In this document: one piece after another, positions 3,867 through 52,063 of the stretch
Layout of the letters: each line of letters opens with the position of its first letter
How positions within the stretch are numbered: the stretch's first letter is position 1
From: Candidatus Woesearchaeota archaeon
GTDB lineage: Archaea > Nanobdellota > Nanobdellia > Woesearchaeales > ARS49
NCBI GenBank assembly: GCA_014729505.1
Contig: WJJS01000001.1
Location: 12,938-76,937 of the forward strand
Length of the DNA stretch: 64,000 bases
Direction: 5' to 3'
Position numbers and translations under genes: made by a program
Notes under the pieces: model-generated
The model's database searches: none
Told to the model about the DNA's origin: nothing
What the model saw: only the letters and a program-made list of their open reading frames with translations

Positions 3867-3928
3867 TTAACACTCTTTATGAGTAATAAAATATTTCTGA
3901 ACATCTTTTTGTTCATCCAAGCATCTGT

Positions 3929-6550: not shown

Positions 6551-6648
6551 ATCCTGATGTACGCGCTAATAATTATATAATAGTTTCTATACCTGCTCTG
6601 GCAGACGACAAAAAATTTATATGCGTTGCACGTAACCGTCTAATAAAA

Positions 6649-8320: not shown

Positions 8321-8344
8321 AAAATATATATTGGGAAATATATG

Positions 8345-9133
8345 TTATAAAGGTTTCGGTGATTGGCGATACTGATAATAGAGTATTGCGCTGCCCGCGA
8401 TACACATAACGATATTGAACACCTGACCCAAGGTCAAACCAAGCAGACTTGGTTCGCCCACACGCAAAAACTCAGTACAAAAGCGAAACACTGCATATAA
8501 AATGAGCCAGATCGCAAGAAGACTTCCCGGACGAAGACCGCGATCACGCAAAAGCCACAGCACTACAAAAATAACAACATTATACGCGACTTCATACAAC
8601 TGGTTTGGATGACGAAACACCAATTGACCAAAAGCGTCAGTTTCACCACCAAAATTAACACCCCAGGGAAGCGACGTGACACGACCAAACAGTTCGCCAT
8701 TAATGAAATTACCCATCCTGCCAAAGGCTTGCCCAAGGGAAAGCGGCACAATCAAAAGATCGCCAAGCGAGAGCAACGATAAGCCAAAACGACGAGCAAG
8801 AATATACGCAGTAATAATCATCGCTACAAGAGAACCATGAAAACTAAGACCACCCTTCCAAATAGCAAGAATTTCAACAGGATGAGCAAAATAATAACCG
8901 GGCTGCCAAAACAGAACCTCAAACAGCCGCGCTCCAATAATCAACGCAACAACAAGCCAGACCATGAGCGAGTCCAACTGCTCAAGAGTAAGCGCAGTCT
9001 TTTCTTGACGAATACGACGACGAACATACCAGTACGCAAACAAAAAGGCCAAGACGTACATCACGCCATACCAATGAATCCTCAAAGGGCCAATACTAAT
9101 GAGGACCGGATCAATCGTGTGAATCCATACCAT
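8345..9133 (-). CDS. lgt: Prolipoprotein diacylglyceryl transferase
   Basis: 262-aa polytopic ORF. IDPVLISIGPLRIHWYGVMY, WKGGLSFHG, GRMGNFINGELFGR and HPNQLYE align along the whole length with bacterial Lgt. Confidence 0.9.
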   Translation of the reverse strand: MVWIHTIDPVLISIGPLRIHWYGVMYVLAFLFAYWYVRRRIRQEKTALTLEQLDSLMVWLVVALIIGARLFEVLFWQPGYYFAHPVEILAIWKGGLSFHGSLVAMIITAYILARRFGLSLLSLGDLLIVPLSLGQAFGRMGNFINGELFGRVTSLPWGVNFGGETDAFGQLVFRHPNQLYEVAYNVVIFVVLWLLRDRGLRPGSLLAIWLILYAVFRFCTEFLRVGEPSLLGLTLGQVFNIVMCIAGSAILYYQYRQSPKPL

Positions 9134-9893
9134 ATGTAGCTAATGAAAAAAGACGAATAAATGATAAGAGCGGAAACAGCGCAAGACCAACAACAAATCC
9201 TGCAAAAGGACTTAACAGATTGACGCTATAGATAATGACCTGAGCGAAAGCAAGACTGCCGGCAATCACGACCATCATAGGAACAAAGAGTTTCCAACGT
9301 CGAAGCCCGAGACGAAACGCGTAACGCACATTCAAGGAACCATACGAAATAAGAGCGAAATACACAAGAGCGACAAGCAAGATATAGAACGGAATAAAAG
9401 GCCATACAGGTTTTGTCGTCGAAGTAAGCGATGCAATAAGAGTGTAGCGCAAATCAACATAGAGCAAAGCAAAAAACAACACAAGACCGGAGATAAACCA
9501 TGGCAGATTTACCAAAAAGAAACGAAGAAAAAACCTCTTGACTTCATACATAAGCAAGCGTCTAGACAAATGCCACGCCAAACCCTGAAGAACACCATAC
9601 ACGACGTAAGCAATCAAACCCGCAAGCAGCGTATATAGCACAAACCGCAGTACAAGAGGTTGCAAAGTGCTATGAGACACTAACGTCCACACACTAAACG
9701 AGTCAAGCTGTTGCAACACTTGACCGATACCAGTAGTCAGCGTAAAGGACAATTCCAGTAAACGATCAACAACAGGAGCAGTAGCAAAACCTAGCACAAA
9801 AAGAAAAGAGACATCAATAAGACCAAGAGCAAGCACCACTAACACATTGTTTTTCATCACTCGTGCAGTATAGTAAATACTCTTTTGTAACAT
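9111..9893 (-). CDS. Polytopic membrane protein, unknown function
   Basis: 260-aa ORF with about 7 hydrophobic segments. Its 3' end overlaps the lgt start by 23 nt, and it starts 2 nt after the TPR gene stop. Confidence 0.6.
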   Translation of the reverse strand: MLQKSIYYTARVMKNNVLVVLALGLIDVSFLFVLGFATAPVVDRLLELSFTLTTGIGQVLQQLDSFSVWTLVSHSTLQPLVLRFVLYTLLAGLIAYVVYGVLQGLAWHLSRRLLMYEVKRFFLRFFLVNLPWFISGLVLFFALLYVDLRYTLIASLTSTTKPVWPFIPFYILLVALVYFALISYGSLNVRYAFRLGLRRWKLFVPMMVVIAGSLAFAQVIIYSVNLLSPFAGFVVGLALFPLLSFIRLFSLATYGMDSHD

Positions 9894-9894
9894 A

Positions 9895-11898
9895 TTATTT
9901 CGAACTTTTGAGATACCAATTCCTCAAACGGACAACCTTATCAACAACAGAAGGATACATATAGAACTGACCATATTTTTTTGCAGTTTTACTCAGCAAC
10001 TTATCAAGCTCAAGCATTTTGTACATCACCTGAATAGCGTCCTTTTTGCGATCGTATCTAAACAATAATTTGACAAGTTCGACGCCATCATCAGGATGTT
10101 TGGTCAACTTGTAAAAAATCTCCGCGTGAGAAACAGCCTTATCAGGATCGCCCTTTTGCGCATACAGTATAGAGATTGCTCGATGATACTGGGCAATCCA
10201 GGGCTTCTTTTTATGAAACTCATCGAGCAACTGCATTGCCTCGTCTATTCTACCCTGCGCATGAAGAATCTCTGAGTGCGCATGAACAAGATCAAACTCG
10301 CGAGTCCAAGAAGGTGCTTTATCAAGCAAAGACAGTCCCTTTTTTGGTTTTCCAACAAACGCGAGCAACACTGCTTCCCACAAAAGAAGAAACTCATTAT
10401 GAGGCGCCCTCTTACGAGCTTGTTGTACCACTCGAAGAGCGCGATCGTGATTACCGACGTGACTTAACGCGTTTATCACATGCTCTTCATATTGAAGATC
10501 CTTCTTGTGATATGGCAATCCCCTCTCAAGATACGCCAAAGCCTTTTTTGCTTTACCGTCACTGCGAGCAATACGACTGCCAGTAAGATAGCCAGTCTGA
10601 TCCTTAGGATACCACTTGATAATTTTGTCAGCTATCGGATACGCTTTGCCAGGCTTACCGAAATGATCGAAATCTTCGAGAAGAACATACAATGCGCGAA
10701 AGTTTCTGGGAAACTTCATAAGGACTTTTTTTGCCAGATCGTAATACGAGGTCCAGTCATTGCATTTTCGCAGACACTCAAGAGCAGAAAGCCAATTATC
10801 CAGGGTAGGAGGTAAGGAAAGAAACACCTTAGCAGCTTCGCGAAACCGGCCGAGCTCACGCAAGCAGGTAGCCTTTGTTTCAAGCAACACTATTGAAGAA
10901 TACTGCTTTAACTTTTTGTTTATCTCCCGCAATTTCTCCCGTTCATTGCCCTGCGTAAACAAGACATGAGGGTACAATGATGGAAGTTTGTCAATCTCAG
11001 AAGCTCTCTTCGCATATTCATGCGCCTTTTTATTCTTGCCGATGGAGAAATACAACGCAGTCAATCGGTTACACACATCAGAATTTTCAGGTTGCAAGAC
11101 TGCAAGTTTTTCATAGTCAGCAATAGCTTTCTTGACTTGATCTGTTACCATAAACAAATCAGCTCGGGCAGTGAGAATGCCTTCATCAGGACCCATCAGA
11201 GATATTGCATGTGTAAGAAACTTCTCCGCTTCACTGAATTTTCCTTCGGCTTTAAGAGAATCCACATACACCACGTAATCATATTCTGCAAATGAAAAAT
11301 TCTCTGCAAACGCTTGAGCAAAAAACTTGTTGGCCTTTTTATGCTCATGATTGTCAAAATACCGGCGTGCAAGATCAAGAAGACTGCGTGCAAGACCAAA
11401 CTTACGATGAATTAACTTCAAGGTCTGCTTATACTTCTTGTCATTTCGAGCATAATAATACAGGTGAGCGAGATCTTCATAATGAGACACTTTAAATGGT
11501 TCGAGCTTGATGACTTTCTTCATCGCGCTAAGAGCTTTAGAACTGTTTGTTTCCCTAAACAACCAATACACACGAAGAGGCCAATACACATTATTTGGTT
11601 GCCTCCTCATATACCTACGCAAAAGCCTTTCTTCACCAACAGCGTCGTGAAGCTCCCTATAGACATCAACTTTACTTTGCATAACATCAATTTCTTCAAG
11701 ACCGCACTCTCTTGCTTTGTCAAGGATTGCCAAAGCCTCCTTTTTCTTTTTGAGCTTAGAGAGTAACTCTGCTTTTCTCTGCAAATACAAAGGATGGCGA
11801 GGATTCTTTTCCAAAGCTCTATTGACGATGCGAAGCTGTTGACTAGTTGGTAAGTACGGATTAACAAACGGGAACACGGAATAGGTACAAGTCTTCAT
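9895..11898 (-). CDS. TPR-repeat protein
   Basis: Long helical-repeat ORF with many 34-aa A/Y/L periodic repeats. I trimmed the start to the ATG at 11898 (MKTCTYS...) because the track's 5' extension overlaps a better small gene on the plus strand. Confidence 0.65.
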   Translation of the reverse strand: MKTCTYSVFPFVNPYLPTSQQLRIVNRALEKNPRHPLYLQRKAELLSKLKKKKEALAILDKARECGLEEIDVMQSKVDVYRELHDAVGEERLLRRYMRRQPNNVYWPLRVYWLFRETNSSKALSAMKKVIKLEPFKVSHYEDLAHLYYYARNDKKYKQTLKLIHRKFGLARSLLDLARRYFDNHEHKKANKFFAQAFAENFSFAEYDYVVYVDSLKAEGKFSEAEKFLTHAISLMGPDEGILTARADLFMVTDQVKKAIADYEKLAVLQPENSDVCNRLTALYFSIGKNKKAHEYAKRASEIDKLPSLYPHVLFTQGNEREKLREINKKLKQYSSIVLLETKATCLRELGRFREAAKVFLSLPPTLDNWLSALECLRKCNDWTSYYDLAKKVLMKFPRNFRALYVLLEDFDHFGKPGKAYPIADKIIKWYPKDQTGYLTGSRIARSDGKAKKALAYLERGLPYHKKDLQYEEHVINALSHVGNHDRALRVVQQARKRAPHNEFLLLWEAVLLAFVGKPKKGLSLLDKAPSWTREFDLVHAHSEILHAQGRIDEAMQLLDEFHKKKPWIAQYHRAISILYAQKGDPDKAVSHAEIFYKLTKHPDDGVELVKLLFRYDRKKDAIQVMYKMLELDKLLSKTAKKYGQFYMYPSVVDKVVRLRNWYLKSSK

Positions 11899-11953
11899 AG
11901 AGTAACACCTAAGTCGAGAAAAGTTTAAATAGTATAAAAACCATACTGTTTTC

Positions 11954-12124
11954 ATGGCCAAATTGACACTACGATGCACTTCATGCAACTGGAAATTCCG
12001 CAGAGTATACGAACCAAAACTGTGTCCTAATTGTGGCAAAGCCACCGTAGAAAAAGACAAACGTCAAGGCGCTTCTGACATTCTGCGAGAACTCGACGAG
12101 ATGCAGTCGGGTTTTGATCGCTAA
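11954..12124 (+). CDS. Small zinc-ribbon protein (56 aa)
   Basis: Hand-translated; it is below the track's length cutoff. MAKLTLRCTSCNWKFRRVYEPKLCPNCGKATVEK... has a CxxC-x13-CxxC knuckle pair. Confidence 0.5.
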   Translation: MAKLTLRCTSCNWKFRRVYEPKLCPNCGKATVEKDKRQGASDILRELDEMQSGFDR

Positions 12125-12159
12125 CTACATTCTTGTCTATTCTTTTTCAGAACACTATT

Positions 12160-20135: not shown

Positions 20136-20253
20136 GGCGGAGTGGCTTAGCCTGGTTAGAGCACCGCGCTCATAGGTCATACCTTTGAGCACTGAGCTTT
20201 CGAGCTATGACGAAGAAACGCGGGGGTCACGAGTTCAAATCTCGTCTCCGCCA
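20136..20253 (+). tRNA. tRNA-Met/Ile2-type (anticodon CAT) with a 43-nt canonical intron (37/38)
   Basis: Acceptor GGCGGAG/CTCCGCC, anticodon arm CCGCG-CTCATA[intron]A-CGCGG, T arm ACGAG-TTCAAAT-CTCGT, discriminator A, T6 run after. G1:C72 argues against an initiator. Confidence 0.8.
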
Positions 20254-38732: not shown

Positions 38733-38826
38733 AAGACTGAGAAGACAAGGACAACATATAAATTTTGCTTATCCTTATTGAGTAATCAACAGCAAGATTA
38801 AATACTATTATCCCATCGCGGTACGC

Positions 38827-39483
38827 ATGTGTGGCCGCTACGCAATAGTCCAACAAAAAAACGATCTTGAAACATTCTATGACGCCAACATGAAAGCAGC
38901 ATGGAAACCGCGATACAACGCAGCACCCACACAAGAATTACCACTAGTGCTTGACGCAGATCCTGCGCATATCGTAGTCGCTCGATGGGGACTTATTCCT
39001 TTTTGGGCAAAAGACGACAAGATAGGAGCACGACTCATCAACGCACGAAGCGAAACTGTGGCAGAAAAACCGACTTTTCGAACATCGTTTAAGAAACGAC
39101 GATGCCTCATTCCCGCTACACATTTTTACGAATGGAAGAAAACAACAAGCATCAAGAAACCATTTGCAATTCATCTGAAGTCAAAAGAGTTGTTTTCATT
39201 TGCAGGACTGTGGGATGAATGGAAGAGTTCTAAAGGAGAATTGATTCGCACGTTTACAATATTGACGTGCGGTCCTAACAGTGTAATGAAAAAGATCCAT
39301 GATCGCATGCCGGTCATACTCAAAAAATCTGACGAAGAGGCGTGGATGAATCCTACGAGCTCAGAGACTGCACTGCAGAAGTTGTTGAAACCTTTTTCAT
39401 CGTCGCAACTCGTCGCGTACGAGATCAGCACGCTTGTCAACTTGCCGACAAACGACAACCCTGCAGTAGTACAACCAGTCTAA
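38827..39483 (+). CDS. SRAP-domain abasic-site processing protein (YedK/HMCES family)
   Basis: 218-aa ORF. MCGRYA (Cys2), YNAAPTQ, RWGLIPFWAKD, LINARSETVAEKPTFR, RCLIPATHFYEWKK and HDRMPVIL are collinear with E. coli YedK. Confidence 0.9.
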   Translation: MCGRYAIVQQKNDLETFYDANMKAAWKPRYNAAPTQELPLVLDADPAHIVVARWGLIPFWAKDDKIGARLINARSETVAEKPTFRTSFKKRRCLIPATHFYEWKKTTSIKKPFAIHLKSKELFSFAGLWDEWKSSKGELIRTFTILTCGPNSVMKKIHDRMPVILKKSDEEAWMNPTSSETALQKLLKPFSSSQLVAYEISTLVNLPTNDNPAVVQPV

Positions 39484-39535
39484 TCTCTACATTCTTTCTC
39501 ACAAGTCACAAGACACGACTTCGCAGCGCTTTTTA

Positions 39536-40006
39536 GTGACTACGCTTTTGTTTTTTGTCATGGGGTTATTAGGGGTGCGAGGAGAACAACGTATCATCAA
39601 TGATCATATTCTCTACTATGCCGTTTATCACACGCCGTGTTTATTGATCGACGCAGCAAACTGTGCAAACCCACACAAACTATATCCTCTGGCACGTGAA
39701 GAACAACTCTACAACATCCACGTTATTGAAGTCGAACTACTCTACGTTTTTCGCGACGTCCTACTGCGCTGTCACCGCTTTGCACAACAACGAGCAGTGC
39801 GCCACATACTCCTCACGACATTCAACCAACTCTTTCACTATCAAGACGCCAAAGAAAACGACAACATCCACGAACATGCATGGGAATTGCTGCGCACACT
39901 AGGACAACGCTATGACGTACGCGTCGGCATACATCACCGTCACGAAGCGCGCGCAAGACGATTTTGTGACGCGATCATTACGCAGCACTCTCTGGCGGGA
40001 TATTGA
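39536..40006 (+). CDS. Hypothetical protein; possibly a degenerate RecA/RadB-like fold (speculative)
   Basis: 156-aa ORF (GTG start; ATG at codon 9). GLLGVRGEQ and the hhhhD strand CLLID weakly recall Walker A/B. It lies 52 nt after the SRAP gene. Confidence 0.4.
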   Translation: MTTLLFFVMGLLGVRGEQRIINDHILYYAVYHTPCLLIDAANCANPHKLYPLAREEQLYNIHVIEVELLYVFRDVLLRCHRFAQQRAVRHILLTTFNQLFHYQDAKENDNIHEHAWELLRTLGQRYDVRVGIHHRHEARARRFCDAIITQHSLAGY

Positions 40007-40009
40007 ATT

Positions 40010-40324
40010 ATGGGACATACCGTATGGAGCCAACGGATGAATGCAGAGCGCATCATCACAGAACTACTTCGTTACAAGAAAGCATTGCGAAGCGAACAAC
40101 AAGCACTGTTTGACGAATTACTGAAACGATCCATGAATCATCTCGGTACCATAAGTTACGCAAACAGCATGCACACCTGGGCATTACTGCTCTTATCAAT
40201 ACTACTAGAACAAGAACAACGCATAAAGAAACTAGAACATGTGGTTAATAGATACCTATCAAAAAAAGAACAAGATCGTCGTGTGGCTGAAAACGAAAAC
40301 GACGAATATGCATCGAACCTATGA
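40010..40324 (+). CDS. Hypothetical helical protein
   Basis: 104-aa ORF, 3 nt after the previous gene. Its last 86 nt overlap the polymerase start in another frame. Confidence 0.4.
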   Translation: MGHTVWSQRMNAERIITELLRYKKALRSEQQALFDELLKRSMNHLGTISYANSMHTWALLLLSILLEQEQRIKKLEHVVNRYLSKKEQDRRVAENENDEYASNL

Positions 40325-42794
40325 GTACTCTGTCACACTCTACGCACACGAAGATGCACGAGAATTCCTTACAACGAACAAGATTGCTTTTACAGAACAA
40401 CTCAAAAAAGATCCTTTTCGCAACAAGAAACATGTTCTTGCCATAACGTTATCATGCGAACGACTCGCACCATTTGTAAGATGGTTTGAACTCGGCACCA
40501 AACACCGCATACCGCTTTACAATGCAGATATCACGCCGGAACAACGCTTTCTTTACGAGAACAAGCTAGTACCGTGCAGCAACGTGCGAGACGTTGATGG
40601 GAGACTTGTACACGTCAACGAATCCGCACCACCGCTAAGCACTGTTCATTTGCGATGCGCCACACAAGGACCTATTACACGATTAGAATACCAGGATCAC
40701 ACTATCGTAGGCGAGGAACGAGAAGTACTCGCGCATTTTACGCAACGCTTCAGACAGGACGATCCAGATGTACTACTTATGCGACGAGCATACAAAGCAG
40801 TACCACATCTCTTTGAACGGTTACGTGCGAACGGATTGCACGTGCCTTTTCATCGATGGGATGAGATACCGCTGCGCCACCGCGGCGGCAAGACACACTT
40901 CAGTTACGGAAGAGTATATTATCAAGATCACTCGTTTCAACTGCGAGGACGATTACTCGTTGACACGGCAAGCAGTGTAGGATCAACATGCTCTGTACCT
41001 GCAATCATCGAACTTGCACAGCTCACAGGCACTCGATTCCAACGCGTAGCAGCACGCAGTTTCGGTGCCTCATTTCAACTTCAACTCGTCAAAGAACTGC
41101 TCGCCCAAGATCTGCTTGTGCCATACAAGGAAAAACCCTTTGATGAACCGCTGCGCATGACAGAGTTATTCGACGCAGACAGAGCAGGACATACCTTTGA
41201 TCCTCAACTAGGATTTCACAATGATGTTGTAGCAATAGACTTCTCAAGCATGTATCCATGGATCATCCACAACTACAACATCAGCGCAGATACCATACTC
41301 ACAAAAAAAGGAAAGAAGACCAAGATTCCTGCAGTACCAATTGATGTAACCACACAATATCAAGGAGTGATACCAAAAGCAATCAAACCATTGTTAGATC
41401 GACGCATGTACTACAAAAAACATCCGACGCCGGAAAACAAACGACGAGCAATAGGACTAAAAACACTGCTCGTGACCTGTTATGGTTATCTGCGATTTCG
41501 CGAATTTAAAATGGGACTTGCCACATCACACATGGCAATTTGTTCATACGCGCGAGAACTCCTCCTACAATCAGCAACGCTTGCAGAAGAACAAGGCTTT
41601 CGCGTCATTCACGGCATCATCGATTCACTCTACATATCAAAAAAAGACATTACCACAACAGAAGTCGAAACATTTCGAAAAGAACTAGAACACATGAGCG
41701 GTATACCCGTTGCCTGCGATGGCATCTTCAAATGGATCGTGTTTCTTTCACGACGACATGACAACACTGTCGGAGTGCCGGCCCGTTATTTTGGCGCATA
41801 TAAAAATGGTGGCATTAAAGCAAGAGGTATTGAAGTACGACAATCGAGTGCGCCGCTACTTATACGACGATTCCAACAAAACGTGTTAGAAGAGCTCGCA
41901 GCGTTTTCAACGAAAAGAGCGATACAGGATCACTTGCCACAAGTCATGAAACGCGCACGAGCAGTCCTGCACGATCTGCCTGCGACGCCACGAGAAGAAC
42001 TGTGTTGCAGAATACGCATCAGTAAGACCACGTATTCTCGAAACATTCCACAACGGCAAGTGATACGCTTGTTAACACAACAAGGGAGAGACATTATCGC
42101 TGGACAGGTCATACGGTTCTGGTACAGTGCGAATGGACCGTTACTAGTCGATATGACTGGAAGGCCAGACTACAAAAAATATCGCGATTTGTTATTACGC
42201 GCAATACACTCAGTGTACCAGCCTTTCGGTTATACTACCAAACAACTACAACACCTCCTATTAGACGAATATCAAAGCGTTCTGCAAGATTTTGCGCGAC
42301 AACAGATCCGCTACGAATACGTGCCTATGAAAAAACACTATGCACAAAAACGAGGACTGTCAGAGAGAATCCTGCGACAACGACTGGAACGACAAGGATG
42401 GACGGTGTGGCGCGGCGGCAGCATACATATTACTCGTTATGAAGAACTGTATCCCAACGTACGACGAAAGTACGAATTACTCATCCGTCTGCTTGACGAT
42501 CATAAGCCAGACACAAAAGAAATACTGCAATATTATTGCATGATACAGCACGGCATGCCAGATTTTCTCTGCTACAAAAATGGACGATTCAAATTTGTTG
42601 AATGCAAATTGCAATACGAGCAATTAAGTCATCGACAAAAACGCTGCATTATGAAGCTACAAGACCTGGGATTTGATGTGGAAGTTCACAAACTCGTTGA
42701 CAAACGCACAAAAATGAGAGAGGCACTAGTTGACATGTTTACCAATTGCAAAATAGTACGAGAACGACAACTAGCCCTACTCTCAACATGGTGA
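40239..42794 (+). CDS. Family-B DNA polymerase lacking recognisable exonuclease motifs, fused to a C-terminal VRR-NUC nuclease domain
   Basis: 851-aa ORF. Pol motifs: A VAIDFSSMYPW (D334), B KTLLVTCYGYL (K408), C HGIIDSLY (D462). No DxE, NxxxFD or YxxxD at the expected sites. The C-terminus (from about aa 700) reads ERQGWTVWR...GMPDFLCYKNGRFKFVECKLQYEQLSHRQKRCIMKLQDLGFDVEVH. Confidence 0.85.
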   Translation: MWLIDTYQKKNKIVVWLKTKTTNMHRTYEYSVTLYAHEDAREFLTTNKIAFTEQLKKDPFRNKKHVLAITLSCERLAPFVRWFELGTKHRIPLYNADITPEQRFLYENKLVPCSNVRDVDGRLVHVNESAPPLSTVHLRCATQGPITRLEYQDHTIVGEEREVLAHFTQRFRQDDPDVLLMRRAYKAVPHLFERLRANGLHVPFHRWDEIPLRHRGGKTHFSYGRVYYQDHSFQLRGRLLVDTASSVGSTCSVPAIIELAQLTGTRFQRVAARSFGASFQLQLVKELLAQDLLVPYKEKPFDEPLRMTELFDADRAGHTFDPQLGFHNDVVAIDFSSMYPWIIHNYNISADTILTKKGKKTKIPAVPIDVTTQYQGVIPKAIKPLLDRRMYYKKHPTPENKRRAIGLKTLLVTCYGYLRFREFKMGLATSHMAICSYARELLLQSATLAEEQGFRVIHGIIDSLYISKKDITTTEVETFRKELEHMSGIPVACDGIFKWIVFLSRRHDNTVGVPARYFGAYKNGGIKARGIEVRQSSAPLLIRRFQQNVLEELAAFSTKRAIQDHLPQVMKRARAVLHDLPATPREELCCRIRISKTTYSRNIPQRQVIRLLTQQGRDIIAGQVIRFWYSANGPLLVDMTGRPDYKKYRDLLLRAIHSVYQPFGYTTKQLQHLLLDEYQSVLQDFARQQIRYEYVPMKKHYAQKRGLSERILRQRLERQGWTVWRGGSIHITRYEELYPNVRRKYELLIRLLDDHKPDTKEILQYYCMIQHGMPDFLCYKNGRFKFVECKLQYEQLSHRQKRCIMKLQDLGFDVEVHKLVDKRTKMREALVDMFTNCKIVRERQLALLSTW

Positions 42795-42882: not shown

Positions 42883-43659
42883 ATGCACAAAGCATTAACG
42901 ATAGTATTGCTAGGAATTCTTCTAGTTGGATGCTCAACAACACTAGACACGTCGTCGACAAATCCGCCAACAGCGCCGCACTCAACTTCAAGTCCTCCAA
43001 CAACACAACACCCCGCAACAGAGAACAATTCACAACACACCACAACACAAAATGATTCACAATATCCGACAACGCAGAACGATTCACAACACACGGCAAC
43101 CAATGACTACGTTGCGGGACGAGAACTCTTCAAACTACAACGGGATTCAGACAGTGCACTGGGACAACGAGTAACAGACTTTTTCCCACTTCCTGCAGGA
43201 GCAGTTCTTGTCGAGACAAGACATTTTGGAGCGCAACAATTCAAAGCAAATCTTGTATCAAAAACAGGAGACATATTTCCTTTAGTCAATGATGAAGGAT
43301 ACATTCTTACCACTACGCTGCACTCTTTTGCGGCAGGCCAGTACCTGCTAGACATGATCATCAATGGCGAAGTTACCTTTATCATACGAACACCGGACAT
43401 AGAAGAAGCAACATCATGGAGCGGAGCCGGCAAGAAGTTCACCCCCTTCTTTACACTTTCAGGAACCAACACCTTTGAGATGTCGTTTCAAGGAAATGGA
43501 TTATACATCGTGTCACTATACAATCAAGCAGGAGAACGCATCGCCGTACTTGCACAAGGCGACACCACAGAAAAAACAAACACTGACGTAACCGTACCAC
43601 AAGGACTCTATCTGTTAGGTATAGAATCAACAGGAGTCTGGGACATACAACTCAAATAA
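42883..43659 (+). CDS. Predicted lipoprotein with low-complexity T/Q/N stalk
   Basis: MHKALTIVLLGILLVGC contains a lipobox (LVGC), followed by TTQNDSQ(H/Y) repeats. Confidence 0.55.
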   Translation: MHKALTIVLLGILLVGCSTTLDTSSTNPPTAPHSTSSPPTTQHPATENNSQHTTTQNDSQYPTTQNDSQHTATNDYVAGRELFKLQRDSDSALGQRVTDFFPLPAGAVLVETRHFGAQQFKANLVSKTGDIFPLVNDEGYILTTTLHSFAAGQYLLDMIINGEVTFIIRTPDIEEATSWSGAGKKFTPFFTLSGTNTFEMSFQGNGLYIVSLYNQAGERIAVLAQGDTTEKTNTDVTVPQGLYLLGIESTGVWDIQLK

Positions 43660-46145: not shown

Positions 46146-46269
46146 TCCCCGCCCCCGGACTTGAACCAGGAACCTCGCGGTGACGGCTGACTCGCCTTCA
46201 CGTCTCGAGCGTTGCTCGGAATCAGTTGAGTTTCTACAGCCGCGCGCTCTACCATTGAGCTAGGCGGGG
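46146..46269 (-). tRNA. tRNA-Tyr (anticodon GTA) with a 52-nt canonical intron
   Basis: Acceptor CCCCGCC/GGCGGGG (the C1:G72 archaeal Tyr identity pair), anticodon arm CGCGG-CTGTAG[52]A-CCGCG, T arm CCTGG-TTCAAGT-CCGGG, discriminator A. Confidence 0.85.
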
Positions 46270-46346: not shown

Positions 46347-46664
46347 TTGATCATGACACCTCTCGATTATCTGGCAGTCTTTGAAGAACTTCGACGATAC
46401 GACGATGATCTTCCTAATAGAGAATTTGATGACTGGCATCCGTCATGGCCCAAACTGAAAGGCAGAGGCAATTCAATAGTGGGGTTACTACTCTATTTGC
46501 ATTTAGGACAAAGGCAGGGTTTGTTTGGAGATGAAGTAGAAGGTTGCCTTAGGCACGAATGGAGTGTGAAATCAGGACGTTATACGACGCCAGAAGAGAT
46601 AAAGTTGATCAACAGAACCTTAGACTATGTTATAGAGTATCTGCGAGAAACTACTTCACGATAA
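46347..46664 (+). CDS. Hypothetical protein
   Basis: 105-aa ORF (TTG start; ATG at 46353). Confidence 0.4.
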   Translation: MIMTPLDYLAVFEELRRYDDDLPNREFDDWHPSWPKLKGRGNSIVGLLLYLHLGQRQGLFGDEVEGCLRHEWSVKSGRYTTPEEIKLINRTLDYVIEYLRETTSR

Positions 46665-48057
46665 ACTGCGCTTTATTTGACTGTACAGAGCCCTTCTTGT
46701 CACCAGCACTGAAATGAACAATGATAGGATCGAGCGTGATTGTTCCAATCATTTGCACACGACTGCGAATCTTATACGTGACAAAGACTTCTTGACGACC
46801 TTCAACATTTTTGAATTCCCACTTAATACGAGTGCCAAGCGTGTCATGAGTGGACTTACTCTTCAAGGTCGCAACAGCAGAGGGTTTAACATGTCCAGGA
46901 CCGAATTCGCTTAGCACTTCAAAGACCTTTGGCACTTTTTCCACCAAGGAAATATCAACAGGAGAACGCGATCTATTGCGCACCTGTACATGAATAGAGA
47001 GCTCCTTACCACCATGATGGCGACGAATATTCTTCTTGACGACAACAGGAGCGCGAAACATATAATACGCTCCAAGCGCCAGTAACGCGATAATAATGAA
47101 AATAAGAATAGGCCAGTAATTTTTTGAGACCACAATAGTCTTGGATTCTTCAGGATCTAACTGAACAGTCCACACATACACACCGTCTTCTCGCTCAACT
47201 GAAGGCTCAGTCGATGAAAATAAGTTATCAAACCAGCTAACATCAAAACGATACGTATGACGCTTCACATCATTACCATTGTTTGTAAGCGTCACCACAT
47301 CGCGTGTTCGCAAAAATGATGAAGAGGATTGCAACTCTTCGGCTACCTCGCCGTATTCTGCCACTCTAAAAGCAACAGGCGAAGCTTCCATGCGAATCGT
47401 ACGATTCTCGTGTTCAGTAACCAGTGTTGCGCGCAGTTCATCCTCTTGAGGACGAAGGTCAGGATCGAGATCTGCAGTAAACGTGACTGTTTTTGTCTCG
47501 TCAGGACCCAACGTTACCGCGTGCTGGGCATTAATCAAATTACTGCGCACGTACAAGGTCATTTCAGTGATGTTACGTGGGTTCAAGTTTTCCATTTCAA
47601 GAGAATATGTTATGGGTTGTCGAGGATCAACAGACTCGGCAATATGTACTGTGGAACGCACTGAAGGCGTATACAAACGAGGAGTATCCACTAGCGGTTT
47701 CAAACCGACTAGAGGAGTCTCTTTTTTGACAACGCCAAATTGTCGGGCACTAAACGTGATAGGAATAAGATAAAATGCAGGATCATCAACATGCACTTGA
47801 CGAATACGCAATTTTGTAGTTAAACCCTGCGGCGGAACCCGAAGAACGTCTTTTGTAGAGACATCCCAGCGAATGTCAAGGGTGTACATAGTAATATAGA
47901 CCGTTTCACTCGAGTCATGAGTAATAGTCATATCAAATTCTGCAGTTTCATTCATGCGGATCGAGCGTTCATCAGGAGAAATCTGCACATCAAAAGAAAA
48001 CGCAGCAACACCAAACGCGCACAACAACAAGATGACCAATACAGTAATTCGTTTCAC
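46651..48057 (-). CDS. Secreted/membrane protein, unknown function
   Basis: 468-aa ORF with a signal peptide (MKRITVLVILLLCAFGVAA), a beta-rich ectodomain, one TM helix (ILIFIIIALLALGAYYMF) and a C-terminal beta-rich domain. Confidence 0.55.
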   Translation of the reverse strand: MKRITVLVILLLCAFGVAAFSFDVQISPDERSIRMNETAEFDMTITHDSSETVYITMYTLDIRWDVSTKDVLRVPPQGLTTKLRIRQVHVDDPAFYLIPITFSARQFGVVKKETPLVGLKPLVDTPRLYTPSVRSTVHIAESVDPRQPITYSLEMENLNPRNITEMTLYVRSNLINAQHAVTLGPDETKTVTFTADLDPDLRPQEDELRATLVTEHENRTIRMEASPVAFRVAEYGEVAEELQSSSSFLRTRDVVTLTNNGNDVKRHTYRFDVSWFDNLFSSTEPSVEREDGVYVWTVQLDPEESKTIVVSKNYWPILIFIIIALLALGAYYMFRAPVVVKKNIRRHHGGKELSIHVQVRNRSRSPVDISLVEKVPKVFEVLSEFGPGHVKPSAVATLKSKSTHDTLGTRIKWEFKNVEGRQEVFVTYKIRSRVQMIGTITLDPIIVHFSAGDKKGSVQSNKAQFIVK

Positions 48058-48106: not shown

Positions 48107-50149
48107 CTACTGTAAGCGACTGACATTCTCATATTTCGAGATGGACACTACATGATCTGCAAAACTCTCAATCTTTCGCTCATGACTTACAATAATTACT
48201 TGGTCAAGCTCAAGAGAGTCAAGGACCTCGCGCAAACGATCAAGCTGCTGGGACGAAAAACCATCGGTGGGCTCGTCAAGAATCAGCACATCCCTCGTCT
48301 TAATAGTAGTAATCAAGTTATTAATGACCTTAGTTAGCGCAAGACGATACGCGAGCGCACAAGCGGTACGCTCACCGCCACTCAAATTATCAATCGTTGT
48401 CTCATAACCATTTTGCTCAATAATAGGTGTGAACTCATCATCAAGACGTGCAGAAAACAAATCATCATCAACAAGAGCCGCAAACCACTCGGCAAACAAA
48501 TCATTAAAATTGTGATAAATACGCGCTAACACCTGCTTTTCAATATCCTGCATGAGCGGAATAAAATAACGCGACAACCAGTCACGCGTTTGAGAAACAT
48601 AACGCATCTTCTTTTGAGCCTTCACCTTTTCCTCGATCTCCTTATCAAGCGAATCAATTGTTTGAGAGAGAAGATCAGCTCGCTGAGCAAGCGCCGCAAC
48701 ACGCGCATGCAATTCCTGAAACGCACTAAGAGCAGTATCAAGACGTTTTTTCACCTCCTGCATCGCTTCAGGAACACCAGGAGTAATACGTTGACGCAAA
48801 AGTGCCAGTTCGTTCTTATGATCTTTTTCCAAGGTCATGAACTTCTCCAAGCGGGACTTCAATGTGAGAAGTTCCTTTTCTTGCTCTTGGCGCTGCGCAA
48901 CCTTTGCACGAACTTGCGCTTGAGCCTTTTCCTTTTCAAACATTTCTTGCAGCGCGGACCGAATATCCGAACACCTTTTTTCCAACTGTTCTTTTTGCTC
49001 CTTTTGCGACAATATCTTATCCTGCATACGCTGCAATTTTTGAGACTCCCGCTCAGCAATATTTTGCTTATGCTCTACAGACACGTTCTGCAAACAAGTC
49101 GGGCACTGAGACAAATTATTAATCGCCTGCTTCAACTCCTCGCTCTGCGAGATATGAGTACTACACACGGTGAGTCGCTCACGCACAGATGTTAATTCCT
49201 GCTCGACACTCTTTTGCTCCTCTTCGATCTTTTTGCGCTGCTCAGCAAGCTTCTCCTCGGTCAAGTGAGGCTCCAAAGGCACAGACACTGCCTGTGTCAA
49301 CACCGCGATACGAGAACGAAGATCCTCAGAAAATTGCGAAGTCTGAACGCATTTCTCTTCGAGAAGACGAATTTTTGTAATAAGTTCTTGTTGTTCTTTT
49401 GCAACGCGTTCCCTTTCTGCCACTTCCTTTTTTATCGTCTCAACCACTTGAAACGCAGAATCCTTTTGCGCCTTGACATCACGAAGCGATGCGATAGTGT
49501 GCGCATGATCCTTCTTCTTTTCTTGGAGTCCTTGTTGTTTTACAACAATATCCTTTGTAAACCCTTCAAGGTTGCGCTGCTTGTCACGAAGCGTGCGCAG
49601 GTAAGGCTGCGCATTATCACAAATACGCTTATACTTGTCAATATCAAAGATCTTTCGAAGCACATTAATCCTTGTCTCAGCACTCTCAGTCAAAATCCGC
49701 TTCATCTGCTCTTGAGGAGTATAAACCGTATACCGGTAAATCAACGTTTTACTCTTTGTCAGCATATCTTGAGGGTAGCCAAGCAAGTCAAGAATGCGCA
49801 CCTTGAGTTCAGTAGGAGTCAAATTATGCACGACACCATCAATAATAAGCACGCCTTCATCTTGATCAACAGTTCCTCGAGACGCTTTTAGAGATCGCTT
49901 GATAAACACATGCTGACCGTTCACGTTGAACTCGAGCGTCACAGATCCCTTTTTTGTACCATGACGAAGCAAAGCATTACCTGATAACATACCCCGAAGA
50001 ATGCCAAACAATGAAAACTCAATTGCGAGAAGAACCGTAGATTTGCCAGCACCAATATCGCCCTGCAACAATACCTTTCCTTGAGAAAATGATAACTTCT
50101 CATTAACATAAGAACGGATATTTTCCAGTTGTAAAGAGAGCAATCGCAT
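48107..50149 (-). CDS. rad50: Rad50-like SMC ATPase with CxxC zinc hook
   Basis: MRLLSLQLENIRSY, Walker A GDIGAGKST, hook SQCPTCLQ in the middle of the coiled coil, signature LSGGERTACALAYRLAL, Walker B VLILDEPTDGF. Start trimmed to the ATG at 50149. Confidence 0.85.
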   Translation of the reverse strand: MRLLSLQLENIRSYVNEKLSFSQGKVLLQGDIGAGKSTVLLAIEFSLFGILRGMLSGNALLRHGTKKGSVTLEFNVNGQHVFIKRSLKASRGTVDQDEGVLIIDGVVHNLTPTELKVRILDLLGYPQDMLTKSKTLIYRYTVYTPQEQMKRILTESAETRINVLRKIFDIDKYKRICDNAQPYLRTLRDKQRNLEGFTKDIVVKQQGLQEKKKDHAHTIASLRDVKAQKDSAFQVVETIKKEVAERERVAKEQQELITKIRLLEEKCVQTSQFSEDLRSRIAVLTQAVSVPLEPHLTEEKLAEQRKKIEEEQKSVEQELTSVRERLTVCSTHISQSEELKQAINNLSQCPTCLQNVSVEHKQNIAERESQKLQRMQDKILSQKEQKEQLEKRCSDIRSALQEMFEKEKAQAQVRAKVAQRQEQEKELLTLKSRLEKFMTLEKDHKNELALLRQRITPGVPEAMQEVKKRLDTALSAFQELHARVAALAQRADLLSQTIDSLDKEIEEKVKAQKKMRYVSQTRDWLSRYFIPLMQDIEKQVLARIYHNFNDLFAEWFAALVDDDLFSARLDDEFTPIIEQNGYETTIDNLSGGERTACALAYRLALTKVINNLITTIKTRDVLILDEPTDGFSSQQLDRLREVLDSLELDQVIIVSHERKIESFADHVVSISKYENVSRLQ

Positions 50150-50195
50150 AGTAAGAGGAAGAGGCAAAAGAGTATATAAGCACTGTTGGCGAGAA

Positions 50196-51122
50196 CTATA
50201 TATCTTTTGGCACCACAAACTGTCTATGGTGTTCAAGAGCAGTAATGAAGCGTTTTATTCTGTCAATACTAAGGTCTGATTGTCCAAACTGTCGACGAAG
50301 AGTCACCGACAAGACCGTGCCGCGCTCGTAACGACAGGTACTAGTATCAGTGAAAAAATAGTACTTGCCGTTAATCTTTTTTAGAGCGATAAGATGATGA
50401 TGTGCGCCATCCTTACAAAGCCATATCGGTCTTTTATGATTAAGATCAGAATACCACTGCGTAATTGAATCAACAACAACGTCGAGCTTCACTTTTTGAA
50501 CCTGTTGCAGGGTCTTAAAGAATTTTGGAGCGTGCTTTCTAATAGCTGCACGATTTCTTGTGTTCATGGCCCTAGAAAGAGCACAGGCAGCAGAACAAGG
50601 AGTGTGAGAGATAAAAGGAAATTTTCTCATCAGTTTCTCACGACGGGAAAAATACTCGTAATACGAATATTTCTTTTCAAGATACTTCTCTTCTTGCTCA
50701 CGAATAAACTCCCGAACACAACAAGCAGGATACCCATACAGTTTGCCAGCAATTTTATGAGCTGCTGTTTGACGGCCGCGCTTTATTTCAGACAAATAGT
50801 TCTCAAAAAGCTTTTTCTGCTTTTTTGAAGAAAAAACGTCAAAACCGTACCACGTACCTGCCATTTCCCACTCAATAATATTCTTATGAATACGCGCAAT
50901 CTGTTCAAACGATTTAGGATGGCTCACAGAGAAAAGACAGTTATTTTCCTGCAGATGAAACTGGAAATGCCTGCGCTCATCCAAAGTTGTGGGCGTGATA
51001 CGAAACTGAAGATAGGTAGCAGGCTTTAAACCTGCGGCAAAAAGAAGCAAACGCATACGCGCAGCAGTATCAAGGGCAGGCGTATCCTCTGCAAAGTCAA
51101 GAAACCTCCTCTTTTTATCCAT
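50196..51122 (-). CDS. Cys-motif protein (GYPACC...HTPCSAAC; resembles the archaeal DUF483-type domain)
   Basis: 308-aa ORF ending 46 nt upstream of the rad50 start on the same strand. The family assignment is from memory of the GYPxCC motif only. Confidence 0.4.
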   Translation of the reverse strand: MDKKRRFLDFAEDTPALDTAARMRLLLFAAGLKPATYLQFRITPTTLDERRHFQFHLQENNCLFSVSHPKSFEQIARIHKNIIEWEMAGTWYGFDVFSSKKQKKLFENYLSEIKRGRQTAAHKIAGKLYGYPACCVREFIREQEEKYLEKKYSYYEYFSRREKLMRKFPFISHTPCSAACALSRAMNTRNRAAIRKHAPKFFKTLQQVQKVKLDVVVDSITQWYSDLNHKRPIWLCKDGAHHHLIALKKINGKYYFFTDTSTCRYERGTVLSVTLRRQFGQSDLSIDRIKRFITALEHHRQFVVPKDI

Positions 51123-51199
51123 GATCAGTGGTACGACAACGCAGTATATATTTGTTTTGGACCAAAAAGTTTAAGAATCCATTAAAAATCAATTGTCAC

Positions 51200-52063
51200 A
51201 TGAAATTTCTCGCCATCGGTGATCTGCACGGCGCCATACCAAAGATTCACTTCAAGAATTTTCAGGCGGTTATTGCGCCAGGAGACTTTTGTTCAGATGC
51301 ACCACGACAATACATGTTTCAAGCATTACAATATAATTTGTCACATCCCACAAAAAAAGAAAAACAATGGTATGATATTGTAGGCAAACGCAAAGCAAAA
51401 GCAATGATTGAACAAAGCCTTGCAGACGGCAGAGTCATAGTAGAACGACTCAACGCTCTGAACGTACCTGTATATGTCGTACCAGGAAACTGGGACTGGA
51501 CACCAAAAGATGACAGCGATTGGCATTATTACAGAAAGCATCACTGGACAGCACTTCTTGAAGGATTAGAAAATATAATCGATTGCCATCATCGCCTCGT
51601 CGATGCAGGAACATTTGATATCATAGGACACGGCATTATTTCAGGACCGGAATATCCGCAACACAAAAAAGATCAACAACAACTCACTGCAAAACAACGA
51701 AAAGAAAAACGACGCGAGTACGACAGACAATATCGCAAACTGGACCGTTTATTTCAGCAATCACAAAAACCAGTACTTTTTATTTCTCACAATGTGCCTT
51801 ATGGCACGCCATTTGACAAGATCAACAATCCGTCCTCGCCACGAGACGGAGAACACGTAGGGTCAGTACTTGCAAGAAGAATGAGTCTCAAATATTCGCC
51901 GCTGCTAGGCATCGCAGGACACATGCACGAATATTTTGGCAAGTGCAGACTTGGAAAAACAACGTGGATTGATACCGGTTTTGGCTCAGATGTCAATGTA
52001 GCAATTGACGCAGCACCGCGAAAAATCCGTAAGATAGTTTTCAAAGGGAACACTGCAGTATAA
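51200..52063 (+). CDS. Calcineurin-like metallophosphoesterase
   Basis: AIGDLHG, APGDFCSD, VVPGNWDW, GHGII and IAGHMHEY. It is divergent from the rad50 operon and lacks the Mre11-specific GNHD motif. Confidence 0.65.
   Translation: MKFLAIGDLHGAIPKIHFKNFQAVIAPGDFCSDAPRQYMFQALQYNLSHPTKKEKQWYDIVGKRKAKAMIEQSLADGRVIVERLNALNVPVYVVPGNWDWTPKDDSDWHYYRKHHWTALLEGLENIIDCHHRLVDAGTFDIIGHGIISGPEYPQHKKDQQQLTAKQRKEKRREYDRQYRKLDRLFQQSQKPVLFISHNVPYGTPFDKINNPSSPRDGEHVGSVLARRMSLKYSPLLGIAGHMHEYFGKCRLGKTTWIDTGFGSDVNVAIDAAPRKIRKIVFKGNTAV

Follow-up and report, generated by a model that had tools for sequence, protein, structure and literature searches.

A Woesearchaeota variant of the archaeal PolB2 operon, encoding a probable translesion polymerase fused to a FAN1-like nuclease domain

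A lineage-specific version of the PolB2 operon

Analysis of a 64,000-nucleotide stretch of DNA from a Candidatus Woesearchaeota archaeon (hereinafter, the window) identified a locus which most likely represents, for Woesearchaeota, the archaeal translesion “mutasome” operon of PolB2 (iRadA-PPB2-PolB2), with a frequent neighbor of this operon, the gene for SRAP, located directly 5' (Table 1). Of the mutagenic polymerases known to be induced by damage in archaea, PolB2 (Dpo2) is the main one and, to our knowledge, its holoenzyme and regulation are known solely from Sulfolobus genetics and modelling. The system as a whole is a known one and the locus is its lineage-specific variant. The first description of the operon was by Makarova et al. 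2014 (PMC4104785), and Timinskas, Timinskas & Venclovas 2025 (PMC11791011) list iRadA-PPB2-PolB2 as their operon group 1a. Our core finding is a rediscovery of this published operon and overturns nothing. An earlier note on this DNA regarded the gene combination as undescribed, which does not hold, given that PolB2, an inactivated RadA and arCOG07300/PPB2 form a published conserved operon (PMC4104785; PMC11791011). By contrast, what that note had read as exonuclease loss, retained catalytic residues and mutasome logic withstood the analysis, whereas its novelty did not and its single transcript is doubtful.

Two features appear to be undescribed, namely, the fusion of PolB2 to a VRR-NUC domain, a pairing for which no paper was found in the literature searched, and a promoter box, CACTGGACA-N13-TATA. 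From the former, it seems that the PolB2 machine has gained a structure-specific nuclease in a large group of uncultured archaea, and the latter is a candidate cis-regulatory signal tying a free-standing form of the nuclease to the PolB2 operon. Together, they could offer a handle on the organization of the damage response in archaea that have neither LexA nor an Orc1-2 gene nearby.

Table 1. Features of the PolB2 locus (positions in the window)
Feature	Position	Strand	Details
ORF1, SRAP (YedK/HMCES family), abasic-site shielding protein	38827..39483	+	218 aa; PF02586 full length
Putative operator/upstream promoter element	39500..39515	+	tandem CACAAGTCACAAGACA; variant of clade consensus CACTGGACA
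TATA-like element	39529..39536	+	CTTTTTAG; 13 nt 3' of box; 23 nt from its end (39536) to ATG 39560
ORF2 as listed	39536..40006	+	156 aa; GTG start
iRadA, minimal ATPase-dead Rad51/RadA core	39560..40006	+	148 aa; listed ORF from GTG 39536
ORF3, PPB2 (arCOG07300, “partner of PolB2”)	40010..40324	+	104 aa; homologue profile vs published PPB2
ORF4, PolB2::VRR-NUC	40239..42794	+	851 aa
PolB2 (Dpo2-type) polymerase module	40239..42305	+	ORF4 residues 1-689; profile, alignment, motifs
Internal PIP-like motif QSVLQDF	42273..42293	+	Q679-L682-F685; thumb domain end; pattern match
FAN1-like VRR-NUC (PD-(D/E)xK) nuclease domain fused to PolB2	42306..42767	+	catalytic E709, D775, E788, K790, Q800
C-terminal PIP-like tail QLALLSTW	42768..42791	+	pattern match

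The core operon

Conservation was counted by comparing the window proteins with 68 related genome loci. Homologs of ORF2 lie directly 5' of the polymerase gene in 41 of the 68 loci and homologs of ORF3 in 54, so that the iRadA-PPB2-PolB2 triad, kept in 41 to 54 of these loci, is not unique to this contig, a possibility raised in the earlier note. The gene order is conserved far beyond chance. All the motifs previously read from the translations were found (MCGRY with Cys2, INARSET, YEWKK, DFSSMYPW, KTLLVTCYGY, IIDS and PDF...ECK), and profile searches returned significant matches for the 3 families recognized from them, SRAP (PF02586), DNA_pol_B (PF00136) and VRR_NUC (PF08774). The ORF positions, the 3-nt gap between ORF2 and ORF3, the 86-nt overlap between ORF3 and ORF4 and, for ORF2 as listed, the 52-nt spacer 3' of SRAP are likewise as described. 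However, the likeliest start of ORF2 is ATG 39560: the resulting 148 aa equal the length annotated by NCBI for this protein (P0121), and the homologs begin at this point. The listed GTG 39536 overlaps the TATA-like element. The spacer is therefore 76 nt.

The polymerase module of ORF4 matches DNA_pol_B (E = 7e-14) and NCBIfam NF004416 (E = 3e-94; 316.7 bits, which is under the equivalog cutoff of 516), and its placement in the PolB2 group was assessed by pairwise similarity to Dpo2 and bacterial PolB2-type loci. It shares 32% identity with S. islandicus Dpo2 over 219 aa covering ADK/ADR, DFSSMYP and IIDSL, with the loop motif D314-R315, which precedes motif A, aligning with 253-DK-254 of the latter; D314 is invariant and R315 nearly so. 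Alignment with the Deep Vent polymerase confirmed the loss of the exonuclease motifs, with Exo I and Exo II having no acidic counterparts (FDIET is replaced by non-acidic residues and NGDSFD by MxxAFS). In the same alignment, DTD corresponds to IVD, so that motif C has another residue in place of its first Asp, and ORF4 shares its IID with S. islandicus Dpo2. The residues of motif A (D334), motif B (K408) and motif C (D462 of IID) are invariant, with D334 and D462 checked in 32 sequences; the polymerase and the nuclease, described below, both retain their catalytic residues, as had been claimed. The internal PIP-like motif, through which, we infer, PolB2 may bind PCNA, includes the invariant Q679, and the pattern Q-x-x-[LI]-x-[ED]-[YF] is present in 90 of the 109 full-length relatives, being located near the C-terminus in the unfused ones.

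ORF2 was found to have the Rad51/RadA ATPase-core fold and was assigned to the inactivated RadA families arCOG07763/04294/08101. The ATP-binding residues are lost, with GVRGEQR where GxxGxGK[ST] is expected, and the N-terminal helical domain is absent, the protein beginning at strand 1. Its profile matches the iRadA of a related locus, L049 (E = 4e-5), which is itself Pfam Rad51-positive; it does not reach RadA in the PDB, and the match to S. islandicus iRadA is not significant. Extreme divergence of iRadA has likewise been noted previously (PMC4104785). ORF3 carries the precomputed Pfam tag PF26485, and the profile of its homologs aligned from residue 1 with published PPB2 proteins (34.4 bits for MBN29952 and 14.8-15.1 bits for S. 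islandicus PPB2) in a set of 6 target sequences, for which alone the E-values are valid. PPB2 is encoded between iRadA and PolB2 in 54 related loci and is fused to iRadA in some. The N-terminus, MGHTVWSQR, in which His3 replaces Arg3 and Arg9 is kept, is a variant of the published MGRT arm (Arg3, Arg9) rather than an identical copy, MGHT being the clade consensus.

A FAN1-like nuclease domain fused to PolB2

The presence of a VRR-NUC domain at the end of ORF4 was corroborated by a match to PF08774 above the cutoff (29.8-33.2 bits versus 23.8) and by a complete PD-(D/E)xK set, of which E709, D775, E788, K790 and Q800 are invariant. The domain has a restriction-endonuclease-like fold, nearest to known VRR-NUC structures. 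The best structural matches are FAN1 chains, including the FAN1-PCNA-5' flap complex, with 125 aligned residues versus 78 for the minimal VRR-NUC. In the model, a 3-helix insertion (helices 37-44, 50-66 and 71-80) resembles the one which makes FAN1 monomeric. The substrate is a guess from this resemblance of folds, in which the identity is about 21%.

About half of Woesearchaeota-type PolB2s carry the fusion and about half are unfused. Q844 of the C-terminal PIP-like tail is invariant among the fusions, and Q-x-x-[LIVM] occurs within the last 16 residues in 54 of 56 of them; the same tail is found in free-standing VRR-NUC orthologs, most of which are encoded without a PolB2 gene within 6 kb. 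Because half of the PolB2s are unfused and the free-standing genes are mostly distant from PolB2, the nuclease would appear to work also independently of the covalent link.

A putative promoter box shared by the operon and free-standing nuclease genes

The composite promoter, CACTGGACA-N13-TATA, corresponds to CAC(T/A)(G/A)GACA-N13-TATA. In 34 of 45 related loci, iRadA is preceded by CACTGGACA or its variants, including CACAAGACA, with position and spacing unchanged, and the same box is found 5' of 28 of the 34 free-standing VRR-NUC genes; a search of 1.8 Mb yielded 65 composite matches, 54 of which were before iRadA or free-standing VRR-NUC genes. Within the 64-kb window, the composite has a single match, before iRadA, and the 9-mer alone is not enriched. 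The window box deviates from the consensus at 2 positions and is supported by its location and by CACAAGACA at the same place in 5 other loci; the spacing of the TATA-like element agrees with that of the TATTTAA boxes in related loci. We infer that the box and the TATA-like element constitute the iRadA promoter.

Since the box precedes both iRadA and the free-standing nuclease genes, it suggests that the two belong to one regulon. We tentatively propose, with slightly less than even confidence, that DPANN archaea of the Woesearchaeota type possess a small DNA-damage regulon marked by CACTGGACA-N13-TATA, in which the PolB2 mutasome operon would be regulated together with a PCNA-tethered FAN1-like VRR-NUC. 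The translesion machinery of PolB2 would then include the nuclease as a fourth, hitherto unrecognized component. Where the two are fused, in about half of the lineage, one PCNA-bound enzyme could perform both bypass and 5'-end or flap incision.

SRAP and its linkage to the operon

The assignment of ORF1 to the SRAP/YedK/HMCES family proved sound. PF02586 covers residues 1-205 (E = 2.8e-74; 249.7 bits versus a cutoff of 27.1), the relatives in the PDB are HMCES and YedK, and the translation contains the nucleophile C2 (MCGRY) and the conserved residues N73 (INARSET), E102 (YEW) and H158 (HDRMP), with roles assigned from published YedK/HMCES work. SRAP proteins covalently shield abasic sites in single-stranded DNA, as reported in the literature.

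Among the related loci, 21 of 68 encode SRAP no more than 6 kb from PolB2, on either side of the core operon and on either strand, and no other recurrent neighbor was found, except for LexA in bacterial loci. Enrichment of SRAP beside polB2 has already been published (134 of 1823 operons; PMC11791011). Given that its position and strand vary and that a promoter lies inside the SRAP-iRadA spacer, SRAP is probably transcribed separately from the core operon. The single four-gene transcript suggested earlier is accordingly doubtful: iRadA-PPB2-PolB2 has its own conserved promoter. Furthermore, the box was found upstream of none of 26 SRAP genes, so that SRAP may be regulated differently from the operon.

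Alternative interpretations

The independence of SRAP could be taken further, with the 3-gene operon being the true unit and the adjacency of SRAP functionally meaningless in this genome. The separate iRadA promoter, the inconstant side and strand of SRAP, a T-rich stretch immediately 5' of ATG 39560 and the absence of an SRAP gene from the surrounding 6 kb in about 60% of related loci would all fit. However, SRAP is the sole recurrent neighbor, its frequency far exceeds the ~1% expected by chance for a single-copy gene (assuming a genome size of ~1 Mb) and independent work on other archaea and bacteria revealed this enrichment as well, which makes a mere neighbor improbable. It is very unlikely that ORF4 is a catalytically dead scaffold, as in the older view of PolB2, or the main replicase of the organism, even though motif C lacks its first Asp, none of the exonuclease motifs is preserved and the other polymerases of the genome lie outside the window. 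Neither D334, the metal-binding Asp in motif A, nor D462, the second Asp in motif C, varies, and S. islandicus Dpo2, also with IID, is an active polymerase according to PMC11791011 and PMC8764526; an enzyme that lacks proofreading and is encoded in a damage-type operon is unlikely to be the replicase, and other PolB groups are reported in Woesearchaeota.

The role of the nuclease could also differ from 5' flap cleavage. It might incise beside SRAP-DNA or interstrand crosslinks, in the manner of unhooking by FAN1, with SRAP and PolB2::VRR-NUC forming a pathway of shielding, incision and bypass, in line with the tolerance-plus-incision module of the earlier note. This is consistent with the genomic linkage of SRAP and PolB2, the FAN1-like fold and the organization of locus L036, where an unfused VRR-NUC ortholog lies 3.5 kb from a short PolB2, with genes for an AlkD-like glycosylase and SRAP in between. 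Nevertheless, the proposal seems rather unlikely, considering that SRAP genes lack the shared box (0 of 26), that SRAP is equally frequent beside unfused PolB2 and that free-standing nuclease genes mostly have no SRAP nearby. Nor do we favor a dimeric nuclease of the Holliday-junction-resolvase type, cutting reversed or stalled forks for restart by PolB2: the closer match to FAN1 than to the minimal VRR-NUC and the FAN1-like insertion in the model argue against it, and symmetric dimers would be hard to form for a domain attached to a large monomeric polymerase, rendering this role quite unlikely.

Proposed mechanism and comparison with known systems

In the preferred reading, that of a translesion operon with a flap-processing nuclease, a putative regulator acting at the box would switch on the operon after DNA damage, as extrapolated here for DPANN, and likewise the free-standing nuclease gene in other genomes. 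SRAP, a linked but separately transcribed partner, would act earlier, protecting abasic sites of the exposed template. The PIP-like motifs, which are pattern matches, would recruit the complex, for which a PolB2-iRadA-(PPB2)3 pentamer is the working form predicted in the literature, to PCNA. PolB2 would then extend across or past the lesion, and the tethered, probably monomeric FAN1-like VRR-NUC could cut the 5' flap or downstream 5' end resulting from gap filling, whereby synthesis and end processing would be coupled within one polypeptide.

The locus resembles the PolB2 (Dpo2) mutasome operon in the gene order, the RadA core without P-loop and N-terminal domain, the small PPB2 with the N-terminus MG(R/H)T, and a PolB2 in which the exonuclease is dead, the D(K/R) loop motif is present and motif C reads IID, as well as in the iRadA-PPB2 fusions of some relatives, also published, and the enrichment of SRAP nearby, with LexA in bacterial copies. 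Unlike in the published operon, the PolB2 studied here has a VRR-NUC domain at its C-terminus along with a second PIP-like tail, it is PolB2, not iRadA, that bears the clamp-binding-like motif, iRadA is exceptionally small, at 148 aa, and highly divergent, with sequence profiles falling short of RadA, no orc1/cdc6 gene is found near the locus, SRAP linkage is more common (about 30-35% of loci versus about 7%) and the promoter box is clade specific. Compared with FAN1, the UBZ, SAP and TPR domains are missing, and the VRR-NUC domain, here a predicted nuclease, is either fused to the polymerase or free-standing at about 170 aa.

The analogy to imuA-imuB-dnaE2 drawn in the earlier note agrees with the current view of the PolB2 system in the literature. 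Like ImuA-ImuB-DnaE2 and Pol V (UmuD'2C-RecA), the system combines an error-prone polymerase, a RecA-fold accessory protein and a small partner under damage control, and bacterial cassettes of this kind, too, have linked SRAP genes. Membership in the ImuA-ImuB-DnaE2 system was rejected, with C-family DnaE2 or Y-family-like ImuB domains found in none of the 4 proteins, leaving an analogy only: the polymerase is of family B as opposed to the unrelated families C and Y, there is no ImuB/UmuD homolog in the window system, and the bacterial cassettes have no fused nuclease. As proposed here, the coupling of gap filling to 5' flap removal may be analogous to that in DNA polymerase I, which has a 5' nuclease and polymerase in one chain, and in Pol delta with FEN1 on PCNA, although the nuclease fold is PD-(D/E)xK rather than FEN/PIN-like and the polymerase family differs, too.

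Identity of the operon and its conservation in relatives

ORF2, ORF3 and ORF4 encode iRadA, PPB2 (arCOG07300) and PolB2, which together make up the PolB2 "mutasome" operon, and the system at this locus is already known. It is present here in a variant form distinguished by a fused FAN1-like nuclease, dual PIP-like motifs, a minimal iRadA, an unusually strong linkage to SRAP and a shared promoter box; the VRR-NUC fusion, its free-standing orthologue, the shared box and the PIP-like motifs are apparently undescribed. Re-checking of the coordinates in the window showed the positions of the four same-strand ORFs in the earlier note to be exact, with gaps of 52 nt and 3 nt and an ORF3/ORF4 overlap of 86 nt; its observation was confirmed and its annotation calls were correct.

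Coordinates of the features at the locus, elsewhere in the window and in related loci
Sequence	Feature	Coordinates	Strand	Remark
Window	ORF1, SRAP	38827-39483	+	full-length PF02586 profile match
Window	Box CACAAGTCACAAGACA	39500-39515	+	inside 76-nt spacer after SRAP
Window	TATA-like CTTTTTAG	39529-39536	+	13 nt past box; 23 nt ahead of ATG 39560
Window	ORF2, iRadA	39536-40006 as listed	+	probable start ATG 39560
Window	ORF3, PPB2	40010-40324	+	family profile compared with published PPB2
Window	ORF4, PolB2::VRR-NUC	40239-42794	+	family-B polymerase with fused nuclease
Window	GGACA-rich stretch	38745-38757		before SRAP
Window	ORF directly downstream of PolB2	42883-43659		no Pfam match
Window	Rfam tRNA match	20136-20253	+	118 nt
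Window	Rfam tRNA match	46146-46269	-	124 nt
Window	Unannotated ORF	46651-48057	-	468 aa; no Pfam match
Window	SMC/Rad50-like ATPase	48107-50236	-	
Window	Calcineurin-like phosphoesterase	51128-52063	+	
L049	iRadA, two PPB2 copies, PolB2	3372-6830		Nitrosopumilaceae
L036	PolB2 to free-standing VRR-NUC	5905-12156		seven genes
L081	Free-standing VRR-NUC	5992-6504		
L107	Free-standing VRR-NUC	5953-6534		
L001	Xer-like tyrosine recombinase	331-1158		
L035	Xer-like tyrosine recombinase	5174-5995		

The reading of ORF1 as an SRAP protein is borne out by its PF02586 match (E=2.8e-74); the protein carries Cys2 and the conserved Asn, Glu and His residues, and its PDB relatives are HMCES and YedK. ORF4 is assigned to the family-B polymerases by its Pfam profile, with NF004416 as the best curated match, and is 32% identical over 219 residues to Dpo2 of S. 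islandicus, with DFSSMYP, the ADK/ADR motif of the loop and an unusual IID where DTD would stand all falling within the aligned stretch. Alignment to the Deep Vent polymerase revealed no counterparts of the acidic residues of Exo I and Exo II, upholding the proposed absence of exonuclease motifs, and the motif A and motif C aspartates, D334 and D462, do not vary among 32 relatives.

Word-indexed searches returned 2 homologues for ORF2 and 5 for ORF3, and the homologues analyzed were drawn from the polymerase-retrieved loci and an exhaustive search. The resulting ORF3 family profile matches published PPB2 proteins starting at their residue 1, and ORF3 begins with MGHTVWSQR, a variant form of the arm published as MGRT...R9. 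The profile of 41 ORF2 homologues, when run against PDB sequences, did not reach RadA, its only hits being a designed protein and noise from RNA polymerase, and its match to S. islandicus iRadA was not significant; the assignment of ORF2 therefore called for fold comparison. The most likely ORF2 start is ATG 39560, which yields a product of 148 aa, equal to the NCBI-annotated protein (P0121), and at which the homologues also begin.

The mutasome operon was described by Makarova et al. in 2014 (PMC4104785) and analyzed in depth by Timinskas et al. in 2025 (PMC11791011), where the order iRadA-PPB2-PolB2 defines group 1a. The latter study also reported iRadA-PPB2 fusions, horizontal transfer of the operon to bacteria, LexA adjoining the bacterial copies and enrichment of SRAP beside polB2 (134 of 1823 operons). 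Every one of these features was recovered among the 68 genome loci that a search with the polymerase brought up: 41 have an iRadA homologue upstream and 54 a PPB2 homologue, Deltaproteobacterial loci included; 8 encode iRadA-PPB2 fusions, 13 bacterial loci contain LexA, and SRAP lies within 6 kb of PolB2 in 21. A Nitrosopumilaceae locus (L049), in which a Pfam Rad51-positive iRadA is followed by duplicated PPB2 and then PolB2, reproduces an arrangement given in the 2025 paper. Since the operon and the SRAP enrichment were already published, the earlier belief that SRAP, iRadA, PPB2 and PolB2 form an undescribed combination was wrong.

Woesearchaeota-type operons (43-47% identity, same minimal iRadA) were also found on contigs labelled Omnitrophota (L024, L025, L029, L068), Acidobacteriota (L009), Brocadia (L064) or Methanosarcinales (L007, L008 and others), which are probably mis-binned DPANN.

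Nuclease fusion and PIP-like motifs

Among full-length Woesearchaeota/Nanoarchaeota-type PolB2 clusters, about half (56 of 109) carry VRR-NUC, and the fusion is present in 20 of the 68 genome loci. The nuclease is mentioned in neither the main text nor the neighbourhood table of PMC11791011, "VRR" matches in its supplement being letters within protein sequences rather than domain names, and our literature search found no paper linking PolB2 with VRR-NUC. As to whether the fusion marks a single clade, fused and unfused proteins interleave in a quick neighbour-joining tree of the 109 polymerase cores, which is too crude to separate repeated gain and loss from poor resolution.

Near their C-terminus, unfused PolB2s bear a Q-x-x-[LI]-x-[ED]-[YF] motif, which is kept internally in the fusions; it is present in 90 of the 109 full-length proteins, fused and unfused together, and Q679 is invariant. 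A second, Q-x-x-[LIVM]-type tail ends both the free-standing nucleases and the fusions. By sequence, both motifs resemble PCNA-interaction peptides.

Promoter box and predicted transcription unit

The box and TATA-like element in the spacer between SRAP and iRadA recur at the same position in related loci as CACTGGACA, approximately 13 nt, TATTTAA, approximately 25-30 nt and the start codon, an architecture found upstream of iRadA in 34 of 45 loci; the variant CACAAGACA occupies this position in five related loci (L008, L044, L084, L101, and L115). An extra CAC is often located 7-8 nt 5' of the box, the box itself being tandem in some cases (L005, L033 and the window), and where PolB2 and PPB2 are separated (L032 and L076), the box also precedes PolB2. 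The composite occurs once in the entire window, where the box shows no overall enrichment; the box draws its meaning from where it lies and from its conservation across loci. In a literature search, the 9-mer was matched only by primers unrelated to it.

None of the 26 SRAP genes checked is preceded by the box, and k-mer enrichment upstream of SRAP yielded TATA-like words only; the GGACA-rich stretch before SRAP of the window has the wrong spacing and was excluded from the count. Among relatives, SRAP is found both upstream and downstream of the operon and in both orientations, a convergent SRAP directly after PolB2 being the commonest arrangement; many relatives share the 3-nt gap and the overlap of PPB2 with PolB2. 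The proposal of one four-gene transcript is doubtful in view of the variable position and strand of SRAP and the promoter-like elements in the spacer. Given their own box and TATA, the variable placement of SRAP and the lack of an SRAP box, iRadA-PPB2-PolB2 is the predicted conserved transcription unit, and SRAP appears to be a linked neighbour expressed from signals of its own, with read-through into the operon possible.

In L036, a 164-aa free-standing VRR-NUC orthologue, its gene carrying the box, follows an unfused PolB2 at a distance of 3.5 kb. The order there is PolB2, an unknown protein, a HAD hydrolase, SRAP (opposite strand), an AlkD-like DNA alkylation repair enzyme (glycosylase; PF08713, 223 bits), a hydrolase and VRR-NUC, which would make a small island of repair genes. 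Scanning metagenomes with the domain yielded approximately 40 more free-standing genes (165-195 aa; among L069-L123) with no PolB2 within 6 kb, whose products are 45-58% identical to the fused domain and share a conserved C-terminal (E/K)(K/R)(Q/E)-M-x-L tail. The same CACTGGACA-N13-TATA composite as before iRadA precedes 28 of 34 non-redundant free-standing genes (25 exact), and 54 of the 65 composites found across 1.8 Mb of related DNA stand ahead of genes of the PolB2 operon or for VRR-NUC. Because the loci were gathered by protein similarity only, the common box is independent evidence that nuclease and mutasome may be co-regulated, consistent with their fusion.

In seven, maybe closely related, loci, an ATP-dependent DNA ligase lies approximately 1-3 kb upstream of the free-standing nuclease. 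In L001 and L035, a Xer-like tyrosine recombinase (Phage_integrase and SAM-like domain), preceded by the same box, occupies the usual place of iRadA-PPB2 directly upstream of PolB2::VRR-NUC.

Possible role of the fused nuclease

Published work (PMC8764526 and PMC11791011) describes Dpo2 as damage-induced, required for targeted mutagenesis and able to extend primer ends that are mispaired or lie opposite a lesion; it also presents a model of a PolB2-iRadA-(PPB2)3 complex and the shielding of abasic sites in single-stranded DNA by SRAP. We infer that the box could be the site for a damage-responsive regulator and that PCNA would recruit the complex, with the FAN1-like domain, probably monomeric, removing a 5' flap or trimming the downstream 5' end in gap filling. 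Unhooking of crosslinks or DNA-protein crosslinks by this domain is a possible but less likely alternative to such processing. Junction cutting in the manner of a dimeric resolvase is more doubtful still, as the FAN1-type alignment is longer and the helical insertion is present.

Genomic surroundings

The window is archaeal and contains genes for RNA polymerase, EF-2 and thermosome as well as tRNAs presumed to have introns, and a Candidatus Woesearchaeota contig encodes a protein identical to ORF4. A mobile-element or virus origin was rejected in view of these genes, the even GC content across the region and the flanking genes, which are unrelated to the operon (pentose-phosphate enzymes, ferredoxin, TspO, a bPH-domain protein and HIT). 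Two Rfam tRNA matches missed by ARAGORN are presumably intron-containing archaeal tRNAs. Behind a signal-like start, the product of the ORF directly downstream of PolB2 has an N-terminal region rich in Thr and Gln and containing short tandem repeats (...TTQNDSQYPTTQNDSQHT...), and it may be a surface protein or lipoprotein. A few kb from the operon, the SMC/Rad50-like ATPase and the nearby calcineurin-like phosphoesterase, with the adjoining unannotated ORF, may form a Rad50-Mre11-type repair cluster.
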